DNA of 64,000 bases from Candidatus Liberimonas magnetica (GTDB lineage: Bacteria > Elusimicrobiota > Endomicrobiia > Endomicrobiales > JAFGIL01), in contig JAJAPY010000016.1 of NCBI GenBank assembly GCA_020523885.1, forward strand, positions 10,359 to 74,358, given 5' to 3'. This document shows, in pieces, positions 20,979 to 50,845 of the stretch. Below the pieces are notes generated by a model. The model saw nothing but the letters and a program-made list of their open reading frames with translations, was not told the DNA's origin and searched no databases. Position 1 is the stretch's first letter. Every line of letters begins with the position of its first letter. A program made the translations under genes and the position numbers.

Positions 20979-21011
20979 AGCAATATTTTCTTGCATAGAA
21001 AACAGGTTAAA

Positions 21012-23195
21012 ATGAACACAGTTAAAAAGTTAGTGTTTACAGGTATTATTTTATGCTCACCAGCTGTCAGTTCTGTTTATGGCAGTTATGCTATTACGAC
21101 TTTTGCCGGAAACGGAATTGCAGGGTATTCCGGAGACGGAGGCAGTGCGGTTTCTGCTAAAATTAGCTATCCATACGGAGTAGCGGTTGATACAGCAGGG
21201 AATGTTTATATTTCCGGATGTACCGGTTCAATAAATCATCGGATAAGGAAAATAAACCCGTCAGGCATAATATCGAATTTTGCAGGGACCGGAACAGAAG
21301 ATTACTCAGGCGACGGAGGCCAGGCAACTTCCGCCAAACTTGATACTCCCAGAGGAGTAGCGGTTGATGCTACAGGGAACGTTTATATCGTGGATCAATT
21401 GAATAACCGGATAAGGAAAGTAAATACCTCAGGTATAATTTCTACTTTTGCGGGAAGCGGGACTGCCGGTTATTCTGGAGACGGGGGCCAGGCAGCTTCG
21501 GCTAAACTTAATTATCCTTTTGGAGTAGCGGCCGATGCTTCGGGGAACGTTTATATTGCCGATACAGGTAATTTTGTAATAAGGAAAGTAAACCCTTCAG
21601 GCATTATATCTACTTTTGCGGGAAACGGGACTTCAGGTTATTCCGGAGACGGAGGTAGTGCATCTTCAGCTCAACTTGTCCAGCCTGTAGGCATAGCGGC
21701 CGATGTTTCTGGGAATGTGTATATTGCGGATCAATCGGGCAATCGAATAAGGAAAGTAAATACATCTGGAAAAATATCTACCTTTGCAGGAAACGGGACA
21801 GCCGGTTATTCCGGAGATGGAGGTAGTGCTGATTCAGCTCAGCTTAACAATCCTCAGGCAGTAGCGGTTGATACTTTGGGGAACGTATATATATCTGACT
21901 ATGGAAATTATCGAATAAGGAAAGTAAACACTTCAGGCCTAATAGCTACTTTTGCAGGAAACGGGACAGCCGGTTTTTCAGGAGACGGAGGCAGTGCAAC
22001 TTCAGCTCAAGTTGACGGCCCTGTAGGAGTAGCGGTTGATGTTTCGGGGAATGTCTATATCTCTGATTATACTAATATTCGGGTAAGAAAAGTTTTTGTC
22101 AATTCTGAAACAGGAATTATTTCTGGTAAGATAACTAAATCCGATGGCACAACAGCGATTTCAGGAGTGCTTGTAGAAGTATTAGAATCCGGTGTTGTTA
22201 TATCAACTGCAACAAGCGACATAAGCGGTAATTATTCAATAACGGTCGGAATAGGTACTTATGATGTAAGGACTTCCTTGTCAGGGTATCAATCACAGTT
22301 GAAAAATGGCTATAGTGTAAGTGGCGGTTCTATTATAACCATCAATTTTTCTTTAACGGAAGCTCCTTCATCACAGACAGGCACTCTTTCCTGTACGATA
22401 ATAGCATCGGACGGTTCAGCCATTATTAATGCTTTAATAAAAATTTATCAGGGAAGCATACCTGTGAATGAAGGCTATTCTGACCCTTCGGGCAAATGCA
22501 GTTTTTCTTTAGGAGCCGGAAGTTATGATATCTCTGTTTCAAAGGCCGGCTTTCAAACAAAAGCGCAGAAAGGCCTTTCTGTTACTGCTGAACAGACAGC
22601 GTCCGCAAATTTTTCGCTTGCCCCTGCGGTTCAAGCCCGGACAGGGACCATTACGTGCAATATCCAGTGTAACGGAGCAGTTGTAGTAAATGCGGTGATA
22701 AGGATTACCCAAAACAACGATTTGATAGATGTAGAACAGACTGATTCCATAGGGACATACGGGTTTTCCCTTGCGGCAGGAATGTATGACATAAATGTAT
22801 CTAAAACCGGCTATCAGACGTCAAACCAGACAGGCGTTATCGTAAACAATAACCAGACTACAAAGGTATATATTTCACTTCTTCAGACAAGCCAGCAAAA
22901 ACCTCAGGCAGGCATGCAGACTACGCTCGGCAATAACTTGTTCAGCCCCGGTGCCGGCGGGACATGTAAAATTGTGTATAATGTGTCCCAAGCAGGCAAT
23001 GTAACTATAAAAATATGTGATTTGATGGGGAGACAGGTGAGAAGTGCAATTGATAATTCAAACTATACCGCGGGCAGCTACCAGTGGGACTGGGACGGCA
23101 AAGACGATAACGGGGAAAATGTGCCGTCCGGCATATATATTTTATATTTCAAATATCCCGGAGGCACTGAAACAAGGAAGATAGGCGTAAAATAG
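21012..23195 (+). CDS. Secreted protein: six NHL repeats, three CarboxypepD_reg-like domains, FlgD-Ig-like C-terminal domain
   Basis: Signal peptide MNTVKKLVFTGIILCSPAVSSVYG. Six repeats of GYSGDGG..A..L..P.GVAVD..GNVYI.D..N.RIRKVN. Tail contains WDWDGKDDNGENVPSGIYILYF. ATG 21012 preferred over the track start at 20991. Confidence 0.85.
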   Translation: MNTVKKLVFTGIILCSPAVSSVYGSYAITTFAGNGIAGYSGDGGSAVSAKISYPYGVAVDTAGNVYISGCTGSINHRIRKINPSGIISNFAGTGTEDYSGDGGQATSAKLDTPRGVAVDATGNVYIVDQLNNRIRKVNTSGIISTFAGSGTAGYSGDGGQAASAKLNYPFGVAADASGNVYIADTGNFVIRKVNPSGIISTFAGNGTSGYSGDGGSASSAQLVQPVGIAADVSGNVYIADQSGNRIRKVNTSGKISTFAGNGTAGYSGDGGSADSAQLNNPQAVAVDTLGNVYISDYGNYRIRKVNTSGLIATFAGNGTAGFSGDGGSATSAQVDGPVGVAVDVSGNVYISDYTNIRVRKVFVNSETGIISGKITKSDGTTAISGVLVEVLESGVVISTATSDISGNYSITVGIGTYDVRTSLSGYQSQLKNGYSVSGGSIITINFSLTEAPSSQTGTLSCTIIASDGSAIINALIKIYQGSIPVNEGYSDPSGKCSFSLGAGSYDISVSKAGFQTKAQKGLSVTAEQTASANFSLAPAVQARTGTITCNIQCNGAVVVNAVIRITQNNDLIDVEQTDSIGTYGFSLAAGMYDINVSKTGYQTSNQTGVIVNNNQTTKVYISLLQTSQQKPQAGMQTTLGNNLFSPGAGGTCKIVYNVSQAGNVTIKICDLMGRQVRSAIDNSNYTAGSYQWDWDGKDDNGENVPSGIYILYFKYPGGTETRKIGVK

Positions 23196-23228
23196 GACAA
23201 CAGACAACAGATTACAGGCAACTAAACT

Positions 23229-24581
23229 ATGACGAATATAGCAAAACGTAACTTTGTAATTATGTCTTTATTTTGTATTTTTTTTATGCAAAGTAAGTCT
23301 TTCGCGGATCAGTCTGCTGGAGTATTACTTGAATTGCCGACTTCAGCAAGGGCAGGAGGAATGGCGGAATGTTATACTGCCCTGGCTGATGACCCGTTCG
23401 GAGTTTATTATAACCCTGCAGGGATTTCGTTTATTAAAAAGCCGTCGGTTTCTTTTTTATACCAGCAGTATTTGCAGGATATAAACGGCAGTTTTGTGGC
23501 ATTGACGCTGCCGGGAAAGAATTTCAGTATAAATGCCGCGCCGGGTTTTATCTCAATGAAAGAAGAACCTGTATATGATTATTTCGGGAATGATACCGGG
23601 AGAAAATTTAAGTTCCAGGGGACCGTCATACCGCTATCAGGAGCATACAGGCTCAAAGATATTTCTTTCGGTGCAACGGTTAAATACTATAAGGAACAGT
23701 TAGATGACATAGCGAAAGACGTTACGACTTTTGATGCGGGTGTGATTTATAAGTATACAGATATCAGCTTAGGCACATCTTTGCTCAACATGAGCGGCAA
23801 ATTCGGTGATTACGACCTTCCAAAGACAATAAGATTCGGTATTGCCTATACAGTCAGTAAAATAAACATTCTTTTTGACTATAGTTCGCAGGTCACGGTT
23901 AAAAAAAATACTTACCATATAGGCGGCGAGGTGCCGGTATCCGATCATATCTTCATTAGGCTTGGCTATAAATTAAAAGATGAGTTTAGCGGCTTAAGCT
24001 ATGGTTTGGGAATTAAAATGAGCAAGTTTGATATTGATTATGCGGCTTCAAGCTACAGCGAGCTTGGATTGACACAGAGGGCGAGCCTTAACTATCATTT
24101 TGAAATAAAAAAGAAGAAAGAAAAAGCAAAAGAAAAAGTAGTAAAAAAAGATAAATATAAAGAAAAAGAACCGACCACCCCGTATATTAAAGGAGTTATT
24201 ACTGCAGCTGTCGCTGATCTGGTAGCTAGAAACGCATCTGCAGCCGAAGCCGCTTCCGCAACAGATTCTATAAGGAGCGAACTTAACTCAATTATGGAGG
24301 TCAATGTAATTGAAAAGGAAAATATGGAAATGCTCCTGGCTGAACAGAAATTTCCGATGTCAGGATGCTCAAGCCAGGAATGTGCGGTTAAAATGGGAAA
24401 GATACTTAATGCAAAAATCGTTATAATAGGTTCTTTATCAAAGCTTTCAGATACTTATTTTATTAATGCTTTGATAATAGATGTTTCAACCGGAGATATA
24501 TTACAATCCGTAGTCCAAGAAGGGATAAGCGCAACTAAGTTAAGGAACGCCTGCAAGCAGATCCTTGGAAGGATCAAATAG
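23229..24581 (+). CDS. PorV/PorQ-like outer-membrane beta-barrel fused to a CsgG/LpoB-like periplasmic domain
   Basis: Signal peptide; ARAGGMAECYTALADDPFGVYYNPAGISF motif typical of the PorV/PorQ family. K/E-rich linker, then a C-terminal domain with GCSSQECAVKMGKILNAKIVIIGSL. Confidence 0.6.
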   Translation: MTNIAKRNFVIMSLFCIFFMQSKSFADQSAGVLLELPTSARAGGMAECYTALADDPFGVYYNPAGISFIKKPSVSFLYQQYLQDINGSFVALTLPGKNFSINAAPGFISMKEEPVYDYFGNDTGRKFKFQGTVIPLSGAYRLKDISFGATVKYYKEQLDDIAKDVTTFDAGVIYKYTDISLGTSLLNMSGKFGDYDLPKTIRFGIAYTVSKINILFDYSSQVTVKKNTYHIGGEVPVSDHIFIRLGYKLKDEFSGLSYGLGIKMSKFDIDYAASSYSELGLTQRASLNYHFEIKKKKEKAKEKVVKKDKYKEKEPTTPYIKGVITAAVADLVARNASAAEAASATDSIRSELNSIMEVNVIEKENMEMLLAEQKFPMSGCSSQECAVKMGKILNAKIVIIGSLSKLSDTYFINALIIDVSTGDILQSVVQEGISATKLRNACKQILGRIK

Positions 24582-24602
24582 GAAATGAATAGAAAAATTG
24601 GC

Positions 24603-24631
24603 TTGCAAATATATTTCTAATTTAGTATTAT
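24603..24631 (+). promoter_or_regulatory. Sigma70-type promoter candidate for rimP-nusA-infB
   Basis: TTGCAA (24603-24608), 17 nt, TATTAT (24626-24631). Confidence 0.45.
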
Positions 24632-24739
24632 AAACAAAAGAGTGGCATGTACGTTAAGCCGCTCTTTAGTTTTTCTGGCCCAGTTGGCCAGATAAAGATA
24701 AGATTAGACAGATTAAAACGGAATAAAACGGCTGGATCT

Positions 24740-25201
24740 ATGAGCACGATAGAAGAGCTTGAAAAAGTTATTGCACCAGTACTTGAGACAGATAAATTTG
24801 AGCTTGTCGATATTAATTACGGAAAAGAAGGCGGCAAGAAGGTGTTGCGTGTTTTCATCGATAAAGAAGGCGGCGTAAAACTGGCAGATTGCGAGGCCGT
24901 GAGCCTCAAGATAGAAGAAGCGGTTGAAACTTCAGAGCTTATACCTGATGATTATGTAATAGAAGTGTCTTCGCCCGGGCTTGACAGGATAATAAAGAAA
25001 GAGAAAGACTTTATAAAGTTTACGGGGCAGGATGTGAAAATATCGGTTTTTGCACCGATTGACGGGCAGCGGAATTTTACAGGCAAACTGCTCTGGGCAG
25101 GCGAAGGAAAAGTCAAGATAGCCGATATATCCGGTAAGACGCTTGAGATAGAGATAGAAAAGATTGCAAGAGCCAGGTTGAACCCTGAGATAAGAATATA
25201 A
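24740..25201 (+). CDS. rimP: Ribosome maturation factor RimP
   Basis: MSTIEELEKVIAPVLE..., EVSSPGLDR motif, position before nusA. ATG 24740 preferred over the track start at 24647. Confidence 0.85.
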   Translation: MSTIEELEKVIAPVLETDKFELVDINYGKEGGKKVLRVFIDKEGGVKLADCEAVSLKIEEAVETSELIPDDYVIEVSSPGLDRIIKKEKDFIKFTGQDVKISVFAPIDGQRNFTGKLLWAGEGKVKIADISGKTLEIEIEKIARARLNPEIRI

Positions 25202-25303
25202 TGAAAAAATTAAAATGAAAAATGCAAAATTAAGGAAAGAACCAATATAATAAAAGTCTTTTAACCTTAATTTTTCAATTTGATATTTGCATTTTGCATT
25301 TGA
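25202..25303. repeat. Stutter-arm inverted repeat, TGCAAAAT dialect (simple form)
   Basis: tgaaaaaattaaaatgaaaaatgcaaaattaagg ... ataataaaagtcttttaaccttaatttttcaatttgatatttgcattttgcatttga. The track's nusA start at 25294 falls inside the right arm. Confidence 0.85.
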
Positions 25304-25323
25304 TTTTTATAGGGAGAATTAGG

Positions 25324-26682
25324 ATGCCAGAAAAAAGTGAAATGATTTTAGCTTTAGAACAAATAGAAAAAGACAAAGGAATCCCAAAGGGCGATATAAT
25401 AAAAGTCATTGAAAATGCACTTGTTTCAGCTTATAAGAAGCATGTCGGCAAAGACGTTAACGTAGAGGCCGTGGTTAACCCCGAGTCAGGGGAGATGGGA
25501 GCTGTCGTCATAAAGAAAGTTGTCTTGGAATTGAAAAACCCTTCTTTGGAAATTACCCTGGATGAAGCAAAGGCAATAAAAAGCGATATTAAGCTGGACG
25601 AAGACCTCAGGATGCCTCTTGATACGCAGGATTTTTCAAGGATCGCCGCCCAGATAGCAAAACAGGTCATTGTTCAAAAGATAAGAGAATCCGAAAGGCA
25701 AAGCCTTTTTGACGATTATAAAGGGAAAGTCGGTTTAATGGTTAACGGTGTCGTATGGCGTTTTGCGAACCGCAACATAATAGTTGACCTTGGAAAAACC
25801 GAAGCTATTTTACCTGTATCCGAACAGATAAGCAAGGAAAAATTCAATCTCGGCCAACATGTAAGGGCTATAATAGTAAAGGTAGAGAAAGGTTCAAGAG
25901 GGCCCGTAGTAGTGCTGTCAAGGAGCCATCCGGACCTTGTTAAAAGGCTTTTTGAAGTTGAAGTGCCAGAGATCTATGAAAAGATAGTCGAAATAGTAAA
26001 TGTTGTGCGCGAAAAAGGGATGAGGGCTAAAGTAGCCGTTACATCCAATAATCCGAAAGTCGACCCTGTAGGCGCTTGTGTCGGTATTAAAGGAGCAAGG
26101 GTAAAACCTATCATAGACGAGCTTTTCGGAGAACGCATAGACCTTATACCCTTTTCGAACGACCCGGAAAGATATATCGCATCATCTCTTTCACCTGCAA
26201 AAGTTACGCGGGTTAACCTGATATCAAAAGAAGCAAAAAAGGCGGAGGTTATAGTAAACGATGAAATGCTCTCTCTTGCCATCGGAAAGAGCGGGCATAA
26301 TGTCCGACTTGCCGCAAAATTGGTAGGATGGCACATCGATATCCGCTCAGAATCCCAGAAAAAGAAGGAAACAGAACAGAATAATACCGTGGTAAGCGAG
26401 AATCTAAGCAAACTTAAAGGCGTAGGGCAAAAAACCGTTGAAGTCTTAACGAAAGCAGGTTTTATTGACATCAATAAACTTGCCAATGCAAAAATAGATG
26501 ACTTAACGACTTTACAAGGCATCGGAGAAAAAACCGCCAAGAAAATAATAGACTCAGCAAAGGAATTAATTAACACGAAACTTCAGGAGGCAAAAGAAAC
26601 AGAAACAAAAGCAACGGAAACAGACGAAGCCCCTGCAGCAAAGCCTAAAACAAAAGAAAAATCATCAAAAAAGGAAGAGTAA
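25324..26682 (+). CDS. nusA: Transcription termination/antitermination factor NusA
   Basis: NusA N-terminal domain, S1, two KH domains (GACVGIKGARV, AIGKSGHNVRLA), C-terminal HhH region. Confidence 0.95.
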   Translation: MPEKSEMILALEQIEKDKGIPKGDIIKVIENALVSAYKKHVGKDVNVEAVVNPESGEMGAVVIKKVVLELKNPSLEITLDEAKAIKSDIKLDEDLRMPLDTQDFSRIAAQIAKQVIVQKIRESERQSLFDDYKGKVGLMVNGVVWRFANRNIIVDLGKTEAILPVSEQISKEKFNLGQHVRAIIVKVEKGSRGPVVVLSRSHPDLVKRLFEVEVPEIYEKIVEIVNVVREKGMRAKVAVTSNNPKVDPVGACVGIKGARVKPIIDELFGERIDLIPFSNDPERYIASSLSPAKVTRVNLISKEAKKAEVIVNDEMLSLAIGKSGHNVRLAAKLVGWHIDIRSESQKKKETEQNNTVVSENLSKLKGVGQKTVEVLTKAGFIDINKLANAKIDDLTTLQGIGEKTAKKIIDSAKELINTKLQEAKETETKATETDEAPAAKPKTKEKSSKKEE

Positions 26683-26705
26683 TCGTGTTTAAAGAGGATT
26701 AAAAT

Positions 26706-28886: not shown

Positions 28887-28890
28887 AGAG

Positions 28891-28927
28891 ATTGCAAATT
28901 GCAAAATGAAAATTGCAAAATGAAGAT
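28891..28927. repeat. TGCAAAAT-dialect left arm only
   Basis: attgcaaattgcaaaatgaaaattgcaaaatgaagat. I saw no matching right arm before rbfA. Confidence 0.6.
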
Positions 28928-28971
28928 TATATACAGCAAACCAACAAAAAAACTAATTACAGTAGGGATAT

Positions 28972-30403: not shown

Positions 30404-31134
30404 CGTTCAACCTGGCAGAATCAGGCCTGCTGGTCATTAATAAACCGTCAGGCATAACATCCTATGGTGTTGTACGGAAGGTCAAGCACCTGTTGCAAAT
30501 TGACAAAGTCGGACATTGCGGAACGCTGGACCCTATGGCAGAAGGGGTCCTTTTAGTGCTGTTCGGTTCCTCAACGAAAATGCAGAGCGTGTTGATGGGC
30601 CAGAGGAAAGTTTACAGGACTGTTTTGTCCCTGGGTGTAAGAACTGACACCGGCGATATAACAGGAAAGATAATAGAAAAAAAAGAAACCAGGGATATCC
30701 AAAAGGAAGATCTTTTAAATGCGCTAAAAAAGTTTAGCGGGGAGATAAGACAGCTTACTCCGCATTTTTCCGCTGTAAAGGTGAACGGGAAAAAAATGTA
30801 CGAGCTTGCCCGCGAAGGGATAACGGTGGAAAGGCCGCCAAGGATAGTAAATATACATGAAATAGAGCTTCGCGGCTTTAATAGAGATGAGGTCAGTTTA
30901 AGGGTGGAGTGCTCAAGCGGGACATATATCAGGACTTTATGCGAAGATATAGGCGAAGAGCTGGGAATGCCAGCGACCATGAAATATTTGTGCAGGGAAA
31001 AGATAGGAAATTACGATATAAGCGCAGCAATAGCATTAAGTGAAATGGATAAATTAGGCAGGGACGGTTTGCTAGATAGAAAAATAAATTTAAGTTCAGA
31101 AATTCAAAATGCAAATTGCAAAATGCAAAATTAA
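30400..31134 (+). CDS. truB: tRNA pseudouridine(55) synthase
   Basis: GLLVINKPSGITS, HCGTLDPMAEGVL catalytic motif. ATGA overlap with nrnA. The last 11 codons read into the TGCAAAAT element. Confidence 0.9.
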   Translation: MTFNLAESGLLVINKPSGITSYGVVRKVKHLLQIDKVGHCGTLDPMAEGVLLVLFGSSTKMQSVLMGQRKVYRTVLSLGVRTDTGDITGKIIEKKETRDIQKEDLLNALKKFSGEIRQLTPHFSAVKVNGKKMYELAREGITVERPPRIVNIHEIELRGFNRDEVSLRVECSSGTYIRTLCEDIGEELGMPATMKYLCREKIGNYDISAAIALSEMDKLGRDGLLDRKINLSSEIQNANCKMQN

Positions 31135-31220
31135 TGTGTCGCCTTTGGCGACTTATTTAAATTATCCCGCCAAGGCGGGATTCCGCAATTTTGCACTTTG
31201 CAATTTTCATTTTGCAATTA
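31101..31220. repeat. TGCAAAAT-dialect element, complex form with two internal GC hairpins
   Basis: Left arm aattcaaaatgcaaattgcaaaatgcaaaatt. Hairpins GTCGCC-ttt-GGCGAC (31138-31152) and ATCCCGCC-aa-GGCGGGAT (31164-31181). Right arm caattttgcactttgcaattttcattttgcaatt. Confidence 0.85.
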
Positions 31221-37328: not shown

Positions 37329-37430
37329 AATTGCAAATTGCAAATCGAGAAATTGCAAATTTAAAATTGTAGGTTTTGAAATACAGTTGTTAAATTTGCA
37401 TTTTGCAATTTGCAATTTTCAATTTGCAAT
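37329..37430. repeat. Stutter-arm inverted repeat, TGCAAAAT/ATTGCAA dialect
   Basis: Left arm aattgcaaattgcaaatcgagaaattgcaaatttaaaattg. Right arm taaatttgcattttgcaatttgcaattttcaatttgcaat. Preceded by the hairpin ATCCC-ggca-GGGAT at 37310-37323. The right arm abuts the ftsK ATG. Confidence 0.8.
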
Positions 37431-39645
37431 GAAGTCGGTAATAATAAATATGTATTTTAAAGTTAAAGCAAAATCAAAACCTAAGTTCGGGTACGAAAGC
37501 GAGTTAAAAGGATTGGCCTTTATTCTGACCGCCTTTTTGCTTTCCTATTGCCTGGTCATACCGCAGCAATCAGGCGCTCTCGGCCAGGCAGCGGCCAGGA
37601 TATTGTTTTTATTTTTCGGAAAAGCTGCCTTCGTAATACCTTTGATAATGCTCTGGTGGGGCTATTCTTTCTTAAGGGCTTCGCTTGATATTCAATGGCG
37701 TATAAACTTTGTTTTAAGCCTTATTTTCTTAGGGGTCTTAAGCAGCCTGCTTTCTTTATTGGGACAGAGGTTTTATGCCGTCAATTCCGGCGGATTTCTG
37801 GGCCTTAAAATGGCACCGTTTTTCTACAGGATATTCGGCCCGAATTTTGCGCTTGTTATAACAACAGTTATCCTGGTTTATCTCGGAAGTCTTATCTTCA
37901 GGGTCTCATTGAGGGATGTTTTTGTTACAGCCTGCAATAAACTGGTAGAAGATTATAAACTCTGGCAGAAAGAAAGAGCCCAGTGGAAAAAGGCTTTGCC
38001 GCCAAAAATAAAAACAAGAGAAGAAGCACAAAAACCTCAAGCCGCTAAACCTGAGCCCGAAGCAAAGCCCAAAATAATAGAGCCTCAAAAGCCCGTTATT
38101 ACAAAGACAGAAGAAAAAAGAGCAGAAAAAAAACCTGCTGATGCAGAAACTGCCAAGAAATCCAAAGCAAATACAGAAGAAAAACAGCCAGCATACAATA
38201 AATACCAGCTGCCTCTTTTCAGCCTTCTTTCATCTTCAGGCGATATAGTTGTAAAGCATGACCAAAGTGAGCATCTGGCAAATGCTGAACTTCTTACTAA
38301 AACACTTGAACAATTCAATATTTCTGCAAAGGTCAAAGAGATAATCCCGGGCCCGGTAGTCACGAGATATGATATAGAACTTGCTCCGGGCATAAAAATA
38401 CAGGCTGTAACTGCTTTAAGCGACAATATTTCTTTATCAATGAAAGTCCCTGCAGTACGGATAATAGCAGTACCGGAAAAATCGGCCGTGGGAATTGAAG
38501 TCCCTAACAGCGAAACCAGGATAGTCAACCTTAAAGGAATTTTTGAAAGCCAGGAATTTGCAAATTCAAAATCTCTTCTTACTCTTGCCCTCGGAAGGAC
38601 AACCGACGGGGCCTCCTATGTTACGGACCTTGTTCCCATGCCTCATCTGCTCATAGCAGGCGCTACGGGTTCGGGAAAAAGCGTGGGCATACACAGCATT
38701 ATAGCTTCCATACTTTATAAGGCAAGGCCTGATGAAGTGAAATTCCTTCTTATTGATCCGAAACGCCTGGAACTGCCTATGTACCATGGAATACCTCATA
38801 TCTATGACCCCAGCGTTGCACCCGAGCAGGCCGATATAATAACCCAGCCCAAGGAAGCTGCCTTGTCCTTGAAAAAACTTGTCAAAGTGATGGAAAAAAG
38901 GTATGAGAAATTTGCAAAAGAAACCGTAAGGAATATCGAAGGTTATAATGAGAAAATGCAGGAAACAGGCGGCGAGAAGGAGTTCTATATAGTGGTGGTG
39001 ATAGATGAGCTTGCCGACCTTATGCTGATCGCTACAAAAGAAGTCGAAGATTCCATACAACGGCTTGCCCAGATGGCAAGGGCCGTAGGTATCCATTTGA
39101 TACTTGCCACGCAGAGGCCGTCGGTGGATGTTATTACGGGTGTTATTAAAGCTAATTTCCCTGCCAGGATAGCTTTCCAGACGACTTCAAAAGTGGATTC
39201 ACGCGTTATCCTTGACACCATAGGCGCAGAGGACCTGTTCGGAAAAGGCGATATGCTTTTTGTCCCTCCCGGAGAATCAAAGCAGATACGTTTACAGGGC
39301 GGTTTTATATCACAGAAAGAGATAGAAAAGGTGGTCAAGTTCATAAAAGACCAGAACCTGCCTGCCCATTACGAGGACATCTTTGAAAAATCAGGTGCCT
39401 CGGAGGTTCTGGATGAAGAGGAAGAAAAGCATTCCGAAGACCTTTCCAGAGCCTTACAGCTTGTAAGGGAACGCAAACGCGTTTCCCAGGACCTTTTAAA
39501 AGCCCATTTCGGTTCGTCAGCCCGTGCAACGAATATATTAAGTCTGCTTGAAACCAAGGGTTTTATACATAAACCCGAAGGCACGAACCGCTGGCAGATC
39601 CATTTCGATAAGATAGACGAATACTTGAACCTCACTGGAAATTAA
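37429..39645 (+). CDS. ftsK: DNA translocase FtsK
   Basis: N-terminal TM helices, P/K/E-rich linker, motor domain with GATGSGKS Walker A, C-terminal winged-helix gamma domain. The start is uncertain (37429 or 37451). Confidence 0.9.
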   Translation: MKSVIINMYFKVKAKSKPKFGYESELKGLAFILTAFLLSYCLVIPQQSGALGQAAARILFLFFGKAAFVIPLIMLWWGYSFLRASLDIQWRINFVLSLIFLGVLSSLLSLLGQRFYAVNSGGFLGLKMAPFFYRIFGPNFALVITTVILVYLGSLIFRVSLRDVFVTACNKLVEDYKLWQKERAQWKKALPPKIKTREEAQKPQAAKPEPEAKPKIIEPQKPVITKTEEKRAEKKPADAETAKKSKANTEEKQPAYNKYQLPLFSLLSSSGDIVVKHDQSEHLANAELLTKTLEQFNISAKVKEIIPGPVVTRYDIELAPGIKIQAVTALSDNISLSMKVPAVRIIAVPEKSAVGIEVPNSETRIVNLKGIFESQEFANSKSLLTLALGRTTDGASYVTDLVPMPHLLIAGATGSGKSVGIHSIIASILYKARPDEVKFLLIDPKRLELPMYHGIPHIYDPSVAPEQADIITQPKEAALSLKKLVKVMEKRYEKFAKETVRNIEGYNEKMQETGGEKEFYIVVVIDELADLMLIATKEVEDSIQRLAQMARAVGIHLILATQRPSVDVITGVIKANFPARIAFQTTSKVDSRVILDTIGAEDLFGKGDMLFVPPGESKQIRLQGGFISQKEIEKVVKFIKDQNLPAHYEDIFEKSGASEVLDEEEEKHSEDLSRALQLVRERKRVSQDLLKAHFGSSARATNILSLLETKGFIHKPEGTNRWQIHFDKIDEYLNLTGN

Positions 39646-43466: not shown

Positions 43467-43609
43467 GGCCTTCCTACGCAAAACATCCGCCGCAGAATTA
43501 TTGGAGGATTGCCGCGGAGGGTCACCTAAGTTTTGTGAGCATCTGGCATTATGTTTGAAAAATCAAAGTATGCTTGAGTATAGAAAAGCAATTTTAGGAG
43601 TGTCTTCAG

Positions 43610-44062: not shown

Positions 44063-44065
44063 CTT

Positions 44066-44701: not shown

Positions 44702-44710
44702 CTTCAACAT

Positions 44711-44835
44711 ATAATTGCAAATTGCAAAATTAAAAATGTAAAATTAAGGTGTCCCGCTGTGCGGGGATGTATTTAAATTAATCCCGCCTTGGCGGGATAC
44801 ATTAATTTTTCATTTTGCAATTTTCAATTTGCAAT
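44711..44835. repeat. TGCAAAAT-dialect element, complex form with two internal GC hairpins
   Basis: Left arm ataattgcaaattgcaaaattaaaaatgtaaaattaagg. Hairpins CCCGC-tgt-GCGGG (about 44752-44767) and ATCCCGCC-tt-GGCGGGAT (44781-44798). Right arm attaatttttcattttgcaattttcaatttgcaat. Confidence 0.85.
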
Positions 44836-44855
44836 AGATCTTAGGGTGTCTATCC

Positions 44856-45737
44856 ATGGATGCTTATCTTAAAGATTTTGTTTCATATATAGAGGCAGAA
44901 AAGGGCTTGAGCAAGAACACCGTCCTTGCATACACTTCAGACTTAAAACACTACTTCAAATACCTTGATAAAATAAAAAAGCCTCTATTGAATCTTGAAC
45001 ACCAGGACCTGACCGAATTTCTCTGGCAGAAGAAACTGGAGGGGTTAAAACCGCGTTCGTTAAGCCGCCTCATAGAAACATTGAGGCAGTTCCACAGGTT
45101 CCTTATAATCGAAGGATATACGTCAAATGACCCGACTCTAGACCTATTGGCCCCTCGCATCCCGGCAAAGCTTCCCAATATGCTTACTAACGAAGAAGTA
45201 GAGCGCCTCCTTTTTACTATATCCGGAGAAAAGGAGCGCCAGATAAGGAACAGGGCTATGGTAGAGCTTATGTATGCCTCAGGTTTAAGGGTATCTGAAC
45301 TTGTCAATCTGACCGCAGAAAACCTTGATCTTAGCCTCGGGTTTGTGAAGGTATTTGGAAAGGGAAATAAAGAAAGGATAGTCCCTGTAGGTAAAACAGC
45401 GCTAAAGTTTCTGGCGAAATACCTTGAATTAAGGAATAAAAACCCCAGAAACCAGGGAAAACACGAATTGTTTTTGACTAAATTAGGCACCAAAATGTCC
45501 AGGATAGAATTCTGGCGCCAGCTTAAAAACCACGCAAAAAAAGCCGGAATTACAAAGAATATGACGCCGCACGTCCTGCGCCATTCTTTTGCCTCTCACA
45601 TGCTTGCCCACGGTGCGGACCTGAGGTTCGTACAGGAGATGCTGGGCCACAGCTCAATTGCAACCACGCAGATATACACTCATGTCGACAAAGAAAGGTT
45701 AAAAGAACTCCACAAAAAATACCATCCCAGAGGTTGA
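44856..45737 (+). CDS. xerD: Tyrosine recombinase XerD/XerC type
   Basis: N-terminal SAM-like domain (EKGLSKNTVLAYTSDL). Catalytic residues in ASGLRVSEL, HVLRHSFASH, LGHSSIATTQIYTHV. Confidence 0.75.
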   Translation: MDAYLKDFVSYIEAEKGLSKNTVLAYTSDLKHYFKYLDKIKKPLLNLEHQDLTEFLWQKKLEGLKPRSLSRLIETLRQFHRFLIIEGYTSNDPTLDLLAPRIPAKLPNMLTNEEVERLLFTISGEKERQIRNRAMVELMYASGLRVSELVNLTAENLDLSLGFVKVFGKGNKERIVPVGKTALKFLAKYLELRNKNPRNQGKHELFLTKLGTKMSRIEFWRQLKNHAKKAGITKNMTPHVLRHSFASHMLAHGADLRFVQEMLGHSSIATTQIYTHVDKERLKELHKKYHPRG

Positions 45738-45779
45738 TCCTGAAATTTAGCGGCAAGTAAGAATTAAAAGTTAAAAATT

Positions 45780-45788
45780 TGATATAAT
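45780..45788 (+). promoter_or_regulatory. Extended -10 promoter candidate placed so the transcript would be nearly leaderless
   Basis: TGaTATAAT ends 6 nt before the ATG at 45795. No SD lies between them. Confidence 0.35.
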
Positions 45789-45794
45789 CATTTT

Positions 45795-46022
45795 ATGAAA
45801 ACAGTTGGAAAAAGATCGGAAAACCAGATAGATTTTCATGCTTCCGCAGAAAAACTTAAAACCGGGGCGCTGTTTAATGATGAGATGCAAAAACTTGCGC
45901 TTACATACGGTGGTTTTTTTAAGAAAGGTGTTTACAGGTACAAAACGCATGAAGATGCAAATAAACATTGGGAAGACAGCCTGGTAAAAAATGTTGCAAG
46001 GAAAAACATTAATGGAAAATGA
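45795..46022 (+). CDS. Small hypothetical protein, possible antitoxin-like partner of the downstream nucleotidyltransferase
   Basis: 75 aa. Overlaps the next ORF by 11 nt. The opposite-strand 102-aa ORF is F/C/K-rich and looks spurious. Confidence 0.4.
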   Translation: MKTVGKRSENQIDFHASAEKLKTGALFNDEMQKLALTYGGFFKKGVYRYKTHEDANKHWEDSLVKNVARKNINGK

Positions 46023-46494
46023 TGTTTCAAGGCCGGCTACATTGGATGATTTAAAAAAACTTGTTGAGGCTTTAAACAAGGAGAATGCAGATTATATCCT
46101 TATAGGCGGTTACGCCCTTTATGCCCATGGTTTGTATCGGACAACGACAGATATAGATATATTAGTCCCGCCTAATGAGGAATCAGGAAAAAAAGTCATA
46201 AATGCGCTTCTTGTTTTACCCGATAGAGCAGCCCGTGATATAGATGTTTCGTGGTTCGAAGAAAAAGATACAATAAGGTTGGCTGATGAAATTGTTGTAG
46301 ATATAATGTTTAATGCTGCAGGCGAAACATATGAATCTTTAAAAAAATACATGGAAGTTATAAAGATAGACGGCATCCCTGTTAAAACTATCAATCTTGA
46401 AGGCCTCTTGCTTACCAAAAATACTTTCCGTGAAAAGGATCTTACGGATAAAAAACTCCTAAAAAGCATTTTAAACGAAATAAACAAGTCATAA
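46012..46494 (+). CDS. Minimal nucleotidyltransferase-fold protein (DUF6036/AbiEii-like)
   Basis: The pol-beta-type NTase pattern (hG[GS]..., then DhDh) is seen as LIGGYALYAHGLYRTTTDIDILV. Confidence 0.55.
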   Translation: MENDVSRPATLDDLKKLVEALNKENADYILIGGYALYAHGLYRTTTDIDILVPPNEESGKKVINALLVLPDRAARDIDVSWFEEKDTIRLADEIVVDIMFNAAGETYESLKKYMEVIKIDGIPVKTINLEGLLLTKNTFREKDLTDKKLLKSILNEINKS

Positions 46495-46505
46495 ACAGAG
46501 AACAA

Positions 46506-49463
46506 ATGACTATAATTAAAAAAATAATATTCATAGGTATTATTTTACGTACGATATCTGCCAGCTCTGTTTTCGGCCAGGATGTCATTACTACTTTTGC
46601 CGGAACCGGAACTTACGGTTATTCAGGCGACGGAGGGTTGGCCGCTTCAGCCAGGCTATATAATCCTAAAGGAGTAGCGGTTGATAATAATTCGGGAGTT
46701 GTTTATATCTGTGATAGTAATAATCATCGAATACGGAAAGTAAACGCTTCGGGAATAATATCAACTTTTGCCGGAACGGGAACAGCCGGTTTTTCAGGAG
46801 ACGGCAGCCTTGCAACTTCAGCTGAACTTGATACACCTTATGGAGTAGCGGTTGACACTTCAGGGAATGTCTATATCTCTGACCAGGGTAACAACCGGAT
46901 ACGGAAAGTAAACACTTCAAGCACAATAGCAACTTTTGCCGGAGGCGGGACCGGTGGTTTAGGCGACGGCGGCCCTGCAACCTCCGCCCAACTTAATAGT
47001 CCTTACGGAGTAGCGGTTGATTCTTCAGGGAATGTCTATATCTCTGACCAGGGTAACAACCGGATACGGAAAGTAAACACTTCAGGCACAATAGCAACTT
47101 TTGCCGGAGGCGGGACCGGCGGTTTAGGCGACGGCGGCCCTGCAGTCTTAGCTCAACTTAATAACCCTTATGGAGTAACGGTTGACACTCAAGGGAGTGT
47201 CTATATCTCTGATTATACTAATAATTTAATCAGGAAAGTAAACGCTTCAGGCACAATAGCAACTTTTGCCGGAGGCGGGGTCGGCGGTTTAGGCGACGGC
47301 GGCCCTGCAACTTCAGCCCGGCTCACAAATCCCAGTGGTATAGCGGTTGATGATTTAGGGAATGTTTATATTTCTTCCTTTATTGATTTTCGAATACGGA
47401 AAGTGGACACTTCAGGAATAATATCAACTTTTGCGGGGACTGGAATTGCAGGTGATTCAGGCGACGGAGGGAAAGCTACGTTAGCTCAGATAAGTAATTC
47501 TTACGGAGTAGCTGTCGATACTTCAGGGCATGTTTATATCTCTGACTATAACAGTCATCGAATAAGGAAAGTTATTTTGGGGCGCGGGGCTATTGCAGGG
47601 CAGGTATTAGATTCTTATGGAAAAACAGCGGTTTCGGGAGTGCTCATAGAAATATTGCAGTCGGGTGTGCTTAAATCAAGTACGACAAGCGATACGTTCG
47701 GAAATTATGCAGTCAAAGTTGATACCGGGGTTTATAATGTGCGGGCTTCTTTGACAGGCTACCAACCTCAGACTAAAAACGGGTATAATGTAAAAACTAG
47801 TTCGACTGTAACGGTAAATTTTTCCCTTGCACGGATCATCGGCGTTATTTCCGGAAAAGTAACAAAATCGGACGGAACAACGGCGGTTTCAGGAGCGCTC
47901 GTAGAAGCAATGCAATCCGGAGTAACAAAAGCAAGCATTAATACGAATACAAGCGGCAATTACTCAATGAAAATAACTCCGGGGACGTATGATGTAAGAG
48001 TGTCTTCTACAGGTTATGAGCCCCAGCTTAAAACAGGTTATACCGTAGCCGATGGTTCAACTGCCACAGTAAATTTTTCTCTTCTGCAGATCCCAGGTGT
48101 TATTTCAGGCAAAGTGACAAAATCAGACGGAACAACACCTGTCCCAGGAGCCCTTATAGAAATATTACAGTCCGGCGCAGTTAAAGCAAGCGCAACAAGC
48201 GATATAAGCGGCAATTATTCTATAACAACAGATGTGGGAACCTATAATGTAAAGGCATCTAAAACAGGATACCTGTCCCAGACAAAAACCGGGTATGACG
48301 TGACAACCGGTTCGACAAAAACCGTTGATTTTTTGCTTGTCGAGCTTTCTGCAGCTAAAACAGGCGTCATTTCAGGTAAAGTTACACGGTCAAATGGCAC
48401 AACTCCTGTCTCCGGAGCGATGGTAGAAGCGTTAATTTCAGGAATAACAAAAGCAAATGCAACAACAGATGCAAGCGGCAATTATTCTATAAGAGCAGGG
48501 ACGGGGACATATAATGTAAAGGCATCTAAAGCAGGGTACATGTCACAGACAAAAACCGGATACTATGTGGCAGACGGTTCGACAAAAACCGTTAATTTTT
48601 CGCTTGTCGAGCTTGCGGCAGCCAAAACCGGGGTTATTTCAGGGAACGTGACACGGTCGGACGGCATAACACCTGCTTCCGGAGCGGTAGTAGAAGCATT
48701 AATTTCCGGAATAACAAAAGCAAATGTAACAACAGATCTGTACGGCAATTATTCTATAACAGTAGGGACGGGGGCCTATGACGTAAAGGCATCTAAAGGC
48801 GGGTACCTGTCTCAAACAAAAACAGGGTATGACGTGACAACAGGATCGACAAAAACCGTTAATTTTTCGCTTGTAGAGCTTTCAGGGGGCAGCTATGGCG
48901 AAATTGCCGGAAGAGTGACAAAATCCGACGGAGTGACACCTGTTTTTGGTGCGGTAATTGAGGTATTTGAGGCAGGCGTGGAAAGATCAAATGCGATGAC
49001 CGATATAGACGGTTATTATTACCTGGCGGTATCGACAGGGATTTATGATATAAAAGCTTCTATTACAGGATTTCAATCTCAGACAAAAACCTTTTATGCG
49101 CTGGACAGCGCGTCGTTAGTTACTGTAGATTTTTCTTTAGTTGAGGAAATACAGGAAAAACAGGAGATACCTCACGACGACAAAGTGATCGCTCTCGGAG
49201 ATAACTTGTTTAATCCGAGGGCGGGCGGGACATGCAAGGTATGGTTTAACCTTTCACAACCGGGCGATGTAACGATAAAAGTGTATGATTTTATGGGCTC
49301 TCAGGTAAGAACCGGCCTGGACAATGCAAACCATGCTTCGGGGATATCCCAGTGGAACTGGGACGGTAAAGATAATGACGGGAAAATCGTCCCGCCCGGC
49401 ATCTATATTCTGTATTTTAAATACCCGGGTGGAATTATAAAAAGAAAAATAGGCGTAAAATGA
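46506..49463 (+). CDS. Secreted protein: six NHL repeats, six CarboxypepD_reg-like domains, FlgD-Ig-like C-terminal domain (paralog of 21012-23195)
   Basis: Signal peptide, six ...VYIS.. NHL blades, six GVISGKVT.SDGTT.VSGA.VE... domains. The tail WNWDGKDNDGKIVPPGIYILYFKYPGG is nearly the same as the paralog's. Confidence 0.85.
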   Translation: MTIIKKIIFIGIILRTISASSVFGQDVITTFAGTGTYGYSGDGGLAASARLYNPKGVAVDNNSGVVYICDSNNHRIRKVNASGIISTFAGTGTAGFSGDGSLATSAELDTPYGVAVDTSGNVYISDQGNNRIRKVNTSSTIATFAGGGTGGLGDGGPATSAQLNSPYGVAVDSSGNVYISDQGNNRIRKVNTSGTIATFAGGGTGGLGDGGPAVLAQLNNPYGVTVDTQGSVYISDYTNNLIRKVNASGTIATFAGGGVGGLGDGGPATSARLTNPSGIAVDDLGNVYISSFIDFRIRKVDTSGIISTFAGTGIAGDSGDGGKATLAQISNSYGVAVDTSGHVYISDYNSHRIRKVILGRGAIAGQVLDSYGKTAVSGVLIEILQSGVLKSSTTSDTFGNYAVKVDTGVYNVRASLTGYQPQTKNGYNVKTSSTVTVNFSLARIIGVISGKVTKSDGTTAVSGALVEAMQSGVTKASINTNTSGNYSMKITPGTYDVRVSSTGYEPQLKTGYTVADGSTATVNFSLLQIPGVISGKVTKSDGTTPVPGALIEILQSGAVKASATSDISGNYSITTDVGTYNVKASKTGYLSQTKTGYDVTTGSTKTVDFLLVELSAAKTGVISGKVTRSNGTTPVSGAMVEALISGITKANATTDASGNYSIRAGTGTYNVKASKAGYMSQTKTGYYVADGSTKTVNFSLVELAAAKTGVISGNVTRSDGITPASGAVVEALISGITKANVTTDLYGNYSITVGTGAYDVKASKGGYLSQTKTGYDVTTGSTKTVNFSLVELSGGSYGEIAGRVTKSDGVTPVFGAVIEVFEAGVERSNAMTDIDGYYYLAVSTGIYDIKASITGFQSQTKTFYALDSASLVTVDFSLVEEIQEKQEIPHDDKVIALGDNLFNPRAGGTCKVWFNLSQPGDVTIKVYDFMGSQVRTGLDNANHASGISQWNWDGKDNDGKIVPPGIYILYFKYPGGIIKRKIGVK
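46836..47165 (+). repeat. Intragenic tandem repeat, 2 x 165 bp (one NHL blade each)
   Basis: The copies start at 46836 and 47001. By eye I count about a dozen mismatches, including one run of 62 identical nt. A third, more diverged copy follows. Confidence 0.85.
48336..48869 (+). repeat. Intragenic tandem repeat, 2 x 267 bp (one CarboxypepD_reg-like domain each)
   Basis: Units begin with cttgtcgagctt at 48336 and 48603; the next unit starts at 48870. The encoded units, LVEL(S/A)AAKTGVISG..., are highly similar. Confidence 0.8.
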
Positions 49464-49519
49464 GACAACACAACAAGACACAAGACACAAGACTATACTA
49501 TATTGCTTAGGAATTATGG

Positions 49520-50845
49520 ATGAACATAGCAAAACGTAACTTAGTAATTATATTTTTATTTTGTATTTTATTCATGCAAAGTAAGTTGTTCGCGGACCAG
49601 CCTGCCGGGGTGTTCCTTGGGCTGCCTGTATCAGCAAGGGCAGGGGGAATGGCTGATTGTTTTACCGCTTTGGCTGATGACCCGTTCGGCGCATATTATA
49701 ACCCGGCCGGAATATCGTTTATTAGATATCCTGCAGCTTCTTTTTCATACCAGGAGTACTTAGTAGATACAAACGGTACTTTTGCGGCAATAGCTGTTCC
49801 GGGAAGGAATTTCAGTATGAGTATCGCACCCGGATTTGTTACGATGCAAGAAGAACCTATATATGATTCCTTGTGGAATGATACAGGAAAGAAATTCAAG
49901 TTCCAGGCAACGATAGTCCCAGTATCAGGTGCATACAGGATTGGAGGCTTTTCTTTAGGGGCTTCGGCTAAATACTATAAAGAAGAGATAGCTGATGAAG
50001 CGCAAGACGTTTCAACGTTTGATGCCGGCATAATTTATAAGTTTAAAAACATAAGTTTTGGCGCATCCTGGCTTAACATGAACGGTAAATTGTGGGATTA
50101 TGACCTTCCGGGTACGATAAAATACGGTGCCGCCTGCAAGATCATGAAAACAAACCTTCTTTTTGATTACAATTCTCAAATTAATATAAGGAAGGATTCT
50201 TATAATTTGGGCGGAGAGGTTGCGCTGTATGAAGCTTTGTTTATAAGGTTCGGGTATAAGTTAAAAGACGAGTTTGGCGGGTTAAGCTATGGTTTAGGCA
50301 TTAAGATCGGCAAATTTGATATTGATTATGCATCTTCAAACTACAGCGAGCTTGGAGTGACCCAGAGAGTAGCCTTGAACTGTCGTTTTAGCGGTGAAAA
50401 GGCGGAAGAGCCTGTAAAAAGAAAGGAAGAGAAGGTCAGCCGTGTTAAAAAACTGGAAAAAGGCTCAAGGATAGCCGTCTGCGAATTTAAGGCTGAAAAC
50501 ACTTCTCAAGCCAGTGTTTCGATGCTAAGACGTGCCATATTTAACGAACTTAGTTCGAACAGGAAGTTCGAAACGCTTAGCAAGGAAAATATGGAAACGG
50601 CCCTTACCAAAAAGGGGTTTAAATCGACAGGGTGCACAAACGATGAATGTGCAGTTAGAATGGGAAAGGCCCTTAAAGTAAAAGTTGTCTTAACAGGTTC
50701 ATTATCAAAGACTGAGGATACTTATCACATTAAAATTTCATTGGTAGAGGTCAAAACCGGAGAGGTTATGCAGTCCATTGCCCAGGATGCGACCTTGGCC
50801 ACGTTATTACAGGCCTGCAAGCAAATCGTTGAAAGAATAGAATAG
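49520..50845 (+). CDS. PorV/PorQ-like outer-membrane beta-barrel fused to a CsgG/LpoB-like periplasmic domain (paralog of 23229-24581)
   Basis: ARAGGMADCFTALADDPFGAYYNPAGISF. C-terminal domain with GCTNDECAVRMGKALKVKVVLTGSL. The 5' ~170 nt are very similar to the paralog at the DNA level. Confidence 0.6.
   Translation: MNIAKRNLVIIFLFCILFMQSKLFADQPAGVFLGLPVSARAGGMADCFTALADDPFGAYYNPAGISFIRYPAASFSYQEYLVDTNGTFAAIAVPGRNFSMSIAPGFVTMQEEPIYDSLWNDTGKKFKFQATIVPVSGAYRIGGFSLGASAKYYKEEIADEAQDVSTFDAGIIYKFKNISFGASWLNMNGKLWDYDLPGTIKYGAACKIMKTNLLFDYNSQINIRKDSYNLGGEVALYEALFIRFGYKLKDEFGGLSYGLGIKIGKFDIDYASSNYSELGVTQRVALNCRFSGEKAEEPVKRKEEKVSRVKKLEKGSRIAVCEFKAENTSQASVSMLRRAIFNELSSNRKFETLSKENMETALTKKGFKSTGCTNDECAVRMGKALKVKVVLTGSLSKTEDTYHIKISLVEVKTGEVMQSIAQDATLATLLQACKQIVERIE

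Follow-up and report, generated by a model that had tools for sequence, protein, structure and literature searches.

We examined a 64,000-nt stretch of the Candidatus Liberimonas magnetica genome (contig JAJAPY010000016.1; here called the window) that carries two copies of a two-gene module, in each of which a cargo gene with a conserved 3'-terminal "tail" is followed by a gene for an outer membrane beta-barrel. A first-pass annotation had described the copies as a segmental duplication with patchy, high DNA identity and had offered either localized gene conversion or strong constraint on the tail-to-barrel junction as the cause. We show that a single, old, lineage-specific duplication (synonymous divergence [dS], ~0.9 to 1.5) produced the pair and that the patchy identity results from very uneven purifying selection after ordinary duplication, not from gene conversion. 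The final strands of the C-terminal sorting domain (CTD) forming the tail and the barrel blocks conserved throughout the family were under the strongest selection, whereas selection was relaxed or diversifying on the immunoglobulin-like (Ig) array of the passenger and on the periplasmic domain of the barrel protein. The Ig array of the second cargo was rebuilt by internal tandem amplification. The two-gene cassette is conserved across Elusimicrobiota. As a whole, the modules are probably paralogous surface cassettes under uneven selection, in which each barrel would carry or anchor, as its cognate partner, the protein encoded upstream.

Two modules from one old duplication

Module 1 (m1) consists of a cargo gene at 21012-23195 and a barrel gene at 23229-24581, and module 2 (m2) consists of a cargo gene at 46506-49463 and a barrel gene at 49520-50845. 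The modules lie ~25 kb apart in the same order and orientation. When the open reading frames (ORFs) of the window were compared all against all by blastp, the cargos shared 52% amino acid identity over 620 residues (E = 1e-154) and the barrels 56% over 448 residues (E = 0.0). No other duplicated genes were found between or beside the modules in this comparison, and the only further relative was a distant third barrel at 53365-55119 (26 to 28% identity to barrels 1 and 2). At the DNA level, m1 and m2 shared 73.4% identity over 1,197 nt by blastn, seen via Logan contig L018 (run SRR16235686), which is 100% identical to window positions 47282-50932. The proposed duplication of a cargo-barrel module was thus borne out: both genes have significant co-oriented paralogues, and the flanks are single copy. 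The interval initially assigned to it (20991-50845) holds both pairs but also includes ~22 kb of unrelated, unduplicated housekeeping DNA (rimP, nusA, infB, truB, ribF, an EF-G paralogue, rpsO, pnp, ftsK, lolA, rodZ, miaB-like genes, and a XerC/D-like recombinase gene). All ORFs of at least 150 codons with a domain assignment are on the plus strand, and the cumulative GC skew rises steadily across the window. A XerC/D-type tyrosine recombinase gene and a DUF6036/AbiEii-like nucleotidyltransferase gene (44856-46494) lie immediately 5' of m2 and could mark the insertion site or the island boundary of the second copy.

Several details of the first-pass description held. The peptides GIYILYFKYPGG and RKIGVK are exactly common to both cargo tails, identity over the first 171 nt of the barrel genes is 83% (versus 73% in the rest of the barrel domain), and both spacers open with GACAACA. 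The middle cargo repeats and the C-terminal domain of the barrel protein are the most diverged parts (33% and 44% amino acid identity, respectively). The reported "high DNA identity" was overstated. Overall synonymous divergence is large (dS of ~0.9 in the barrel and 1.0 to 1.6 in the alignable cargo regions, i.e., the NHL blades, the first Ig unit [CPD1], and the CTD), and the longest identical run, 19 nt within the LADDPFG motif, is as long as expected from permutation (mean, 19.3; P = 0.52).

Divergence is clearly nonuniform along the modules, as had been noted, but the tail-to-barrel junction has no identity peak. In 60-nt sliding windows, identity was 0.67 to 0.78 in the tail and 0.65 to 0.85 in the barrel body, with a trough of 0.47 in the spacer. 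The sole peak (88 to 90%) covers the first 60 to 80 nt of the barrel gene, and this most identical stretch encodes a signal peptide with predicted cleavage. By segment, DNA identity between m1 and m2 was 68% in the cargo signal peptide, 69% in the NHL blades, 66% in CPD1, 47% (unalignable) in the remaining Ig units, 72% in the tail domain, and about 47% in the spacer. In the barrel gene, it was 88% in the signal peptide, 78% at residues 28 to 60, 73% at residues 61 to 294, 44% in the linker, and 62% in the C-terminal domain. The presumed junction peak is really a signal-peptide peak combined with protein motifs conserved throughout the family.

Strong constraint on the tail and on the N-terminal region of the barrel was supported, but it acts on protein, family-wide, and not on the junction as one unit. 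The tail motif PG.Y.L.Y.YPGG...RKIGVK (recurring in the form PG.Y.L.Y.YPGGKEVRKIGVKK) and the N-terminal barrel block LP.SARAGGMAD.F.AL.DDPFG.YYNPAG are both kept in distant Elusimicrobiota modules with only 30 to 40% overall identity. The two segments lie side by side in the DNA as a result of gene adjacency; they do not make up a single constrained unit. Along the barrel, identity between m1 and m2 peaks at residues 39 to 68 and 250 to 279, which are the most conserved blocks among twelve distant family members. Over the whole protein, the correlation between m1-m2 identity and family conservation was weak per column (r = 0.20 to 0.25) and was -0.10 per window. This is because the C-terminal domain behaves in the opposite way, and the match holds within the barrel domain only. 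Within the family, no part is more conserved than the periplasmic C-terminal domain (column identity, 0.6 to 0.75), yet between m1 and m2 it is the least conserved part (27 to 40% in most windows). Its proportion of nonsynonymous differences (pN) was 0.35 between m1 and m2, compared to 0.11 to 0.15 among the related contigs L001, L015, and L016, and its approximate omega was 0.6, compared to 0.2 in the barrel. In both copies (24195-24578 and 50465-50842), it is the fastest-evolving folded part, and its three invariant cysteines are retained (C380, C385, and C442 in barrel 1). The linkers between barrel and periplasmic domain are unalignable (28% amino acid identity).

Gene conversion and RNA-level constraint

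By the Nei-Gojobori method, the proportion of synonymous differences (pS) between m1 and m2 was 0.53 in the barrel (pN, 0.24; dS, about 0.9) and 0.64 to 0.65 in the tail (pN, 0.18 to 0.20; dS, about 1.5). The tail has the highest synonymous divergence among the conserved parts, and the 12 identical GIYILYFKYPGG codons include eight silent differences, which means that selection at the peptide level maintains the tail. A GENECONV-like maximal-fragment permutation test on the third positions of a five-sequence codon alignment (m1, m2, L001, L015, and L016) found no conversion tract between m1 and m2 (P = 0.87). With all sites included, fragments were obtained for m1-m2 codons 4 to 284 (P = 0.0025) and m1-L001 codons 334 to 452 (P = 0.012). 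We rejected these as conversion because they span whole domains, are lost at third positions, and follow domain-level differences in rate. In neighbor-joining trees, m1 was sister to m2 in each of three regions (bootstrap values: N-terminal part, 0.75; barrel, 0.85 to 0.90; C-terminal domain, 0.68), with no region-specific conflict, and the pair was nested in a clade of six NHL-type modules (0.93 to 1.0). Given the tail pS, the third-position result, and the sister relationship in every region, localized gene conversion is not supported. A single duplication with one history along the whole gene is a sufficient explanation.

Recent change of another kind was found inside cargo 2. Adjacent units there are 82 to 86% identical in DNA (blades 2 and 3, 86%; blades 3 and 4, 83%; Ig units CPD4 and CPD5, 82%), compared to at most 75% for any blade or other unit pair between the modules, which points to recent tandem amplification or homogenization within cargo 2 and not at the junction. 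Units CPD1 to CPD5 of m2 all resemble CPD1 of m1 (55 to 60% amino acid identity) and not CPD2 or CPD3 of m1 (28 to 37%). The cysteine-containing second and third Ig units of m1 have their counterparts in L001 instead.

A narrower version of the conversion hypothesis, in which a tract of ~60 to 80 nt recently homogenized the signal-peptide coding ends of the barrel genes while the rest diverged freely, is in our judgment highly improbable. It would account for the low pS of the first 20 to 26 barrel codons (0.19 to 0.26 versus 0.54 in the barrel domain; P = 0.008 to 0.018 if the region is chosen a priori) and for the identity of 16 out of 19 same-residue codons in the signal peptide, compared to 87 out of 141 in the barrel. 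The signal-peptide DNA is also more similar between m1 and m2 (88%) than between either of them and L001 (81%), though m2 and L001 are closer at the protein level. However, the low-pS start was not significant in a minimum-pS scan of all windows (P = 0.15 to 0.21) or over the 170 nt singled out by the first-pass annotation (P = 0.11 to 0.14), and the third-position test gave no tract. Identical runs in the region reach no more than 17 nt, in a gene whose maximum of 19 nt is at chance level, and five amino acid replacements fall within the supposed tract. Chance identity is raised here by AT-rich two-fold codons. The same signal peptide is kept in the separate module L001 even at high pS (0.51 to 0.70), which indicates selection on the peptide. 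A second alternative places the constraint on the RNA: a stem between the YPGG codons of the tail and barrel codons 27 to 32 would enclose the spacer and the start codon and enforce translational coupling, and a 5' coding region rich in AT and low in structure would be selected as well. This, too, we hold to be very unlikely. CCCGG.GG in the tail can pair with C.G.CGGG ~150 to 190 nt downstream (RNAalifold and single folds of m1, m2, and L001), the m1 fold has a z-score of -2.45, and neither barrel gene has a good Shine-Dalgarno sequence. In distant relatives, the stop and start codons overlap (ATGA), so the coupling is ancestral. Against this, the covariation term is unfavorable (+0.79), a compensatory change is seen in just 1 of the 37 pairs, several pairs are broken, the z-scores are only -1.0 for m2 and -1.5 for L001, and the ends of the folded segment had been placed close to the pairing stretches. 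Protein conservation fixes the Pro-Gly-Gly and Ala/Gly-Gly codons from which the complementarity itself arises. With a long-range stem lacking covariation, weak z-scores, and no Rfam match in the window, a conserved RNA structure across the junction was rejected.

A convincing Shine-Dalgarno sequence is absent from all six genes of the three cassettes in the window (starts at 21012, 23229, 46506, 49520, 52783, and 53365; anti-Shine-Dalgarno pairing of -4.2 kcal/mol or weaker, and -2.5 kcal/mol in spacer 1); such sequences are present in 23 of the 48 window genes. Promoter and terminator scans around m1 and m2 gave counts at shuffle expectation and none between cargo and barrel. The spacers contain heptamer arrays. 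Because distant relatives, with their ATGA overlap, lack a spacer altogether, heptamer slippage seems to be how these spacers lengthened. The cargo-barrel spacer of L001 (1120-1165) consists of about eight NNCAGAC units. A further 7-nt array, of GACTTAG, is located at 10300-10323, upstream of a cdsA-like gene.

Conserved pairing of sorting-domain cargos and barrels

The features of the cassettes are listed in Table 1. The likely start of cargo gene 1 is the ATG at 21012, downstream of the TTG (20991) with which the listed ORF opens. Pfam matches in cargo 1 were TEN_NHL (2.5e-54), CarboxypepD_reg (5.6e-31), and FlgD_ig (PF13860; 33.3 bits, cutoff 27); those in cargo 2 were CarboxypepD_reg in six stretches (4.9e-77), TEN_NHL (1.5e-51), and FlgD_ig (27.8 bits). 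For TIGR04183, the type-A sorting domain of type IX secretion systems (T9SS), the scores were 26.0 and 24.6 bits (cutoff 23), so that both CTDs exceed the cutoffs of both families. PF18962 was not reported for either cargo in the Pfam search, and the match to the type-B domain CHU_C (PF13585) was below its cutoff (23.9 versus 27 bits). An AlphaFold2 (AF2) model of the tail (mean predicted local distance difference test [pLDDT], 92.8) is an Ig-like sandwich whose Foldseek matches include the FlgD Ig domain and the CTDs of PorZ, PorU, RemZ, NucA, RemA, and RgpB, among them CTDs of translocon-bound T9SS substrates. The tail is conserved across 13 modules. A homologue search with a single 100-aa tail gave no candidates. 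A CTD profile search returned proteins annotated as T9SS type A sorting or FlgD Ig-like in Zixibacteria, Cloacimonadota, and Ignavibacteria; these matches were mostly short fragments and serve only as hints to annotation and phylum.

The barrels are assigned to the PorV/PorQ family, barrel 2 only marginally. NF033709 (cutoff 90) was matched by barrel 1 with 111.1 bits and by the third barrel with 157.9 bits, barrel 2 fell just short with 88.2 bits, the equivalog models for PorV, PorQ, and PorV2 were far below their cutoffs, and the PorP/SprF model TIGR03519 gave 18.7 bits for barrel 1 (cutoff 90.55) and no match for barrel 2. The AF2 model of barrel 1 (pLDDT, 82) has the 14-strand FadL-like fold with an N-terminal plug region. 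Its best Foldseek matches were PorV chains from substrate-bound T9SS translocons (8gl6_F, with E = 1.3e-13, and 6h3i_F; TM scores of the two, 0.61 to 0.65), followed by FadL, TbuX, and TodX. The likeness of the C-terminal domain to LpoB is a similarity of fold only (Foldseek): TIGR02722 gave 19.3 and 26.6 bits (cutoff 110.55), PF13036 gave 18.5 and 20.5 bits (cutoff 22.3), and there is no lipobox.

TABLE 1 Features of the three cassettes in the window
Feature	Position	Strand	Details
Cargo gene 1	21012..23195	+	Signal peptide, six NHL blades, three CarboxypepD_reg Ig-like domains, C-terminal sorting domain (from the translation)
CTD ("tail") of cargo 1	22908..23192	+	Ig-like beta-sandwich; end GIYILYFKYPGGTETRKIGVK
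Spacer 1	23196..23228	+	Heptamer tandem array GACAACA x3.9 at 23196-23222 (Tandem Repeats Finder [TRF])
Signal-peptide part of barrel 1	23229..23306	+	MTNIAKRNFVIMSLFCIFFMQSKSFA, predicted cleavage before DQ; 88% DNA identity to m2; AF2 residues 2-20 helix, 21-27 low confidence
PorV/PorQ-family (FadL-like) barrel domain of barrel 1	23307..24110	+	Includes the conserved N-terminal block; NF033709, AF2, Foldseek
Lys/Glu-rich disordered linker of barrel 1	24111..24194	+	pLDDT <50 at residues 295-322; AAAAAG array
Periplasmic LpoB/CsgG/TolB_N-like alpha/beta domain of barrel 1	24195..24581	+	Pfam CsgG 1.5e-6, DUF3280, LpoB; Foldseek LpoB 4q6z, TM 0.66
Cargo gene 2	46506..49463	+	Signal peptide, six NHL blades, six CarboxypepD_reg domains, CTD at 49176-49460
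Homogenized or recently amplified NHL blades of cargo 2	46728..47434	+	TRF period 165 nt, 81-84% matches
Recently amplified CarboxypepD_reg units of cargo 2	48183..48883	+	TRF period 267 nt, 82% matches
Spacer 2	49464..49519	+	Heptamer array ACAAGAC x3 at 49473-49493 (TRF)
Barrel gene 2	49520..50845	+	Signal peptide 49520-49594, PorV/PorQ-like barrel, linker, diverged LpoB-like domain at about 50465-50842
Third cassette, small secreted protein	52783..53349	+	188 aa, little more than a type-A CTD; TIGR04183 29.6 bits (cutoff 23)
Third cassette, barrel	53365..55119	+	PorV/PorQ barrel fused to OmpA (peptidoglycan-binding; 1.4e-14) and TPR; weak PorE match

An exhaustive search for relatives yielded 101 cluster representatives at E <= 1e-30, and homologues of the barrel were almost all from Elusimicrobiota. 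A tail gene (ending ...YPGGKEVRKIGVKK) is located directly upstream of the barrel in 10 out of 13 Elusimicrobiota genome loci, with the ATGA overlap in L002, L003, L004, and L010. Among 45 metagenomic fusions of a barrel to an LpoB-like domain with enough upstream DNA, 29 had a match to the CTD profile directly upstream, and at least 5 more had divergent, tail-like ends by eye. Passengers vary (NHL, Kelch, Laminin_G_3, and PD40 propellers), and the CTD and the barrel are constant. Chance adjacency of an unrelated FadL-like transporter was rejected on the basis of this conserved synteny. One metagenome contig (L052; Ga0315282_10000372, about 700-7800) carries three tail-plus-barrel cassettes in tandem within ~9 kb, and cassette multiplication is therefore not peculiar to the genome studied here. 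Other PorV/PorQ-like barrels of candidate phyla are fused to OmpA, TPR, LysM, or SLH modules, which hints that linkage of barrels to the cell wall is a general theme.

The genes of the third cassette are 15 nt apart. Its small secreted protein matches the C-terminal end of the PorZ model (7e-15), and its barrel is in effect one with a built-in PorE-like part. Just upstream (51126-52757) lies a gene for a 543-aa secreted protein with an internal repeat of ~100 aa (...LGG.LPS.YLTKAVATTTYLPL...) and no Pfam or NCBIfam match, which may likewise be exposed at the surface. Directly downstream of barrel 2, we observed a nested imperfect palindrome at 50881-50991 (GTCATTCCTGC ... GCAGGAATGAC; inner arms, AGCAGGAATCCAG and CTGGATTCCCGCT), which we take to resemble the REP-like elements of other environmental genomes. 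Arrays of the heptamer AATTGCA occur in many intergenic regions (9178-9194, 11175-11195, 25288-25301, 28890-28924, 31107-31219, 37329-37431, 44713-44836, and 56360-56387), often as inverted pairs flanking one or two short GC-rich hairpins (e.g., GTCGCCTTTGGCGAC and ATCCCGCCAAGGCGGGAT at 31130-31185). The 14-mer AATTGCAAATTGCA was found 28 times with up to two mismatches (1.8 expected). The arrays have the look of an intergenic repeat element specific to this genome, perhaps bidirectional terminators or a family resembling REP elements or miniature inverted-repeat transposable elements (MITEs).

Surface display and known systems

In m1 and m2, the product of the first gene is a Sec-exported passenger, an NHL beta-propeller on a CarboxypepD_reg Ig-like stalk ending in a type-A/FlgD-Ig CTD of ~90 aa. 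The second gene provides a 14-strand outer membrane barrel of the PorV/PorQ family with a disordered linker and a periplasmic LpoB-like domain. In the model that we consider probable, by analogy with T9SS, the barrel may bind the CTD of the upstream protein through its extracellular loops and hold the passenger on the cell surface, and the fused periplasmic domain may tie the barrel to a periplasmic or cell wall partner, as PorE does for PorP. Tight gene linkage (the ATGA overlap in distant relatives and the short spacers here) would supply the partners in matched amounts. A carrier or anchor role is the most likely one for the barrel in view of what is known of its relatives. In solved T9SS complexes, the CTD contacts the extracellular loops of PorV and not its N terminus (PMC10994853), and PorU and PorZ retain their CTDs and stay bound to PorV and PorQ (PMC10202324). 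Genes of type-B substrates cluster with those of cognate PorP/SprF barrels, which anchor or shuttle the substrates and on which the substrates depend, and PorP also binds the peptidoglycan-associated PorE (PMC9143113, PMC12618676, PMC10202324).

Several observations weigh against this model. The model does not account for the rapid divergence, in both copies, of a periplasmic domain that is otherwise highly conserved, and constraint at the protein level does not explain the nominally low synonymous divergence of the signal-peptide region (the 16 identical codons out of 19). Barrel 2 scores just below the cutoff of NF033709 (88.2 bits), and the carrier or anchor role is argued from homology and synteny. 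In addition, T9SS has been described as confined to Bacteroidota and the Fibrobacterota-Chlorobiota-Bacteroidota (FCB) group (PMC11205867, PMC10994853), we found no report of it from Elusimicrobiota in the literature, and the 64-kb window contains no genes for SprA/Sov, PorU, or PorKLMN.

The barrel might instead be the dedicated exporter of its partner, in a self-contained two-partner system like Slam of the type XI secretion system (T11SS) or TpsB-TpsA that works without an SprA-type translocon. This reading, which seems unlikely to us, fits the strict one-to-one gene pairing with translational coupling and the presence of a separate barrel in every cassette, even in the three tandem ones of L052. 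The fused periplasmic domain could receive cargo as the TPR domain of Slam does, and the third barrel has a weak TPR_Slam match. The lack of reports of T9SS from Elusimicrobiota also favors it, as do PorV/PorQ-family barrels in spirochetes that lack T9SS (UPF0164). A 14-strand FadL-like barrel with an N-terminal plug is, however, too narrow for a folded propeller, and PorV, the protein closest to it in structure, is a carrier dependent on the 36-strand pore of SprA (PMC10994853). Should Elusimicrobiota have no SprA-type translocon, the cassettes might form a self-sufficient two-component system for export and display, either a minimal relative or precursor of T9SS outside the FCB group or an independent solution, but we think this quite unlikely. 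A barrel fused to an LpoB-like or OmpA/TPR domain would then both receive and deliver its CTD-tagged partner, and the fast divergence of the periplasmic domain would mark the two barrels as specialized for different periplasmic partners or states.

The duplication in itself is routine, a case of paralogues with patchy identity, and there is no need to retain gene conversion as a reading of it. As a variation on the known theme of a cargo with a cognate barrel, the cassette is modestly new: a type-A-like tail translationally linked to its own PorV/PorQ-like barrel with a fused periplasmic domain, across a phylum without a described T9SS. Should the barrels prove to be cognate anchors, the "one cargo, one barrel" logic known from type-B substrates in Bacteroidota would apply to a further tail type and in a further phylum, and the cassettes would offer a compact two-gene model for CTD recognition by a PorV-like barrel. 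For the annotation of candidate-phylum genomes, this suggests a rule whereby a CTD gene followed by a barrel-fusion gene is read as a surface display cassette.

Among known systems, the PorP/SprF barrels with type-B cargo in Bacteroidota (SprB-SprF and PG1035-PorP-PorE) share the clustering of a cargo gene with its own PorV-like barrel gene, the occurrence of several paralogous pairs per genome, a barrel that anchors or shuttles a CTD protein, and a periplasmic cell wall partner, PorE (PMC9143113, PMC12618676, PMC10202324). Adjacent cargo and barrel genes conserved across genomes, the operational feature of those systems, were found here as well. The periplasmic part is fused to the barrel in the window (LpoB-like in cassettes 1 and 2, OmpA plus TPR in cassette 3). 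Unlike in PorP/SprF systems, the CTD is of the type-A/FlgD-Ig kind, the barrel matches NF033709 and not TIGR03519, and the phylum is Elusimicrobiota. PorV, PorV-PorU, and PorQ-PorZ share the barrel family and fold, and the CTD fold matches PorZ, PorU, and substrate CTDs; PorV, however, serves hundreds of type-A substrates and is not encoded beside them, and neither PorV nor PorQ has a fused periplasmic domain. In type XI secretion, the Slam protein combines a 14-strand barrel with a periplasmic TPR domain and is encoded beside a surface lipoprotein or hemophore cargo with a conserved C-terminal beta domain, and paralogous pairs have cargo specificity. The likeness lies in a barrel with a periplasmic domain next to its cargo (the tool evidence being only the weak TPR_Slam match in the third barrel), whereas the Slam barrel belongs to DUF560 and is not PorV/FadL-like, its periplasmic domain is N-terminal, and its cargos are lipoproteins or hemophores and not CTD proteins. 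BamG-BamH of the BAM complex in Bacteroidota likewise has a FadL-like 14-strand barrel with a conserved N terminus that binds a surface protein through extracellular loops (PMC12578637), and BAM entries were among the Foldseek matches of the barrel (9n2d_B and 9hiv_F). BamG, however, is an essential, BamA-associated subunit whose partner lipoprotein has no CTD, and the structural match is much weaker than that to PorV. The C-terminal domain of the barrel protein shares its fold with LpoB, the activator of PBP1b, and with CsgG/TolB_N/FlgO-like domains (4q6z; weak Pfam matches to LpoB, CsgG, DUF3280, and TolB_N), but unlike LpoB it is a nonlipoprotein domain fused to a barrel, has three invariant cysteines, and scores far below the equivalog cutoff.

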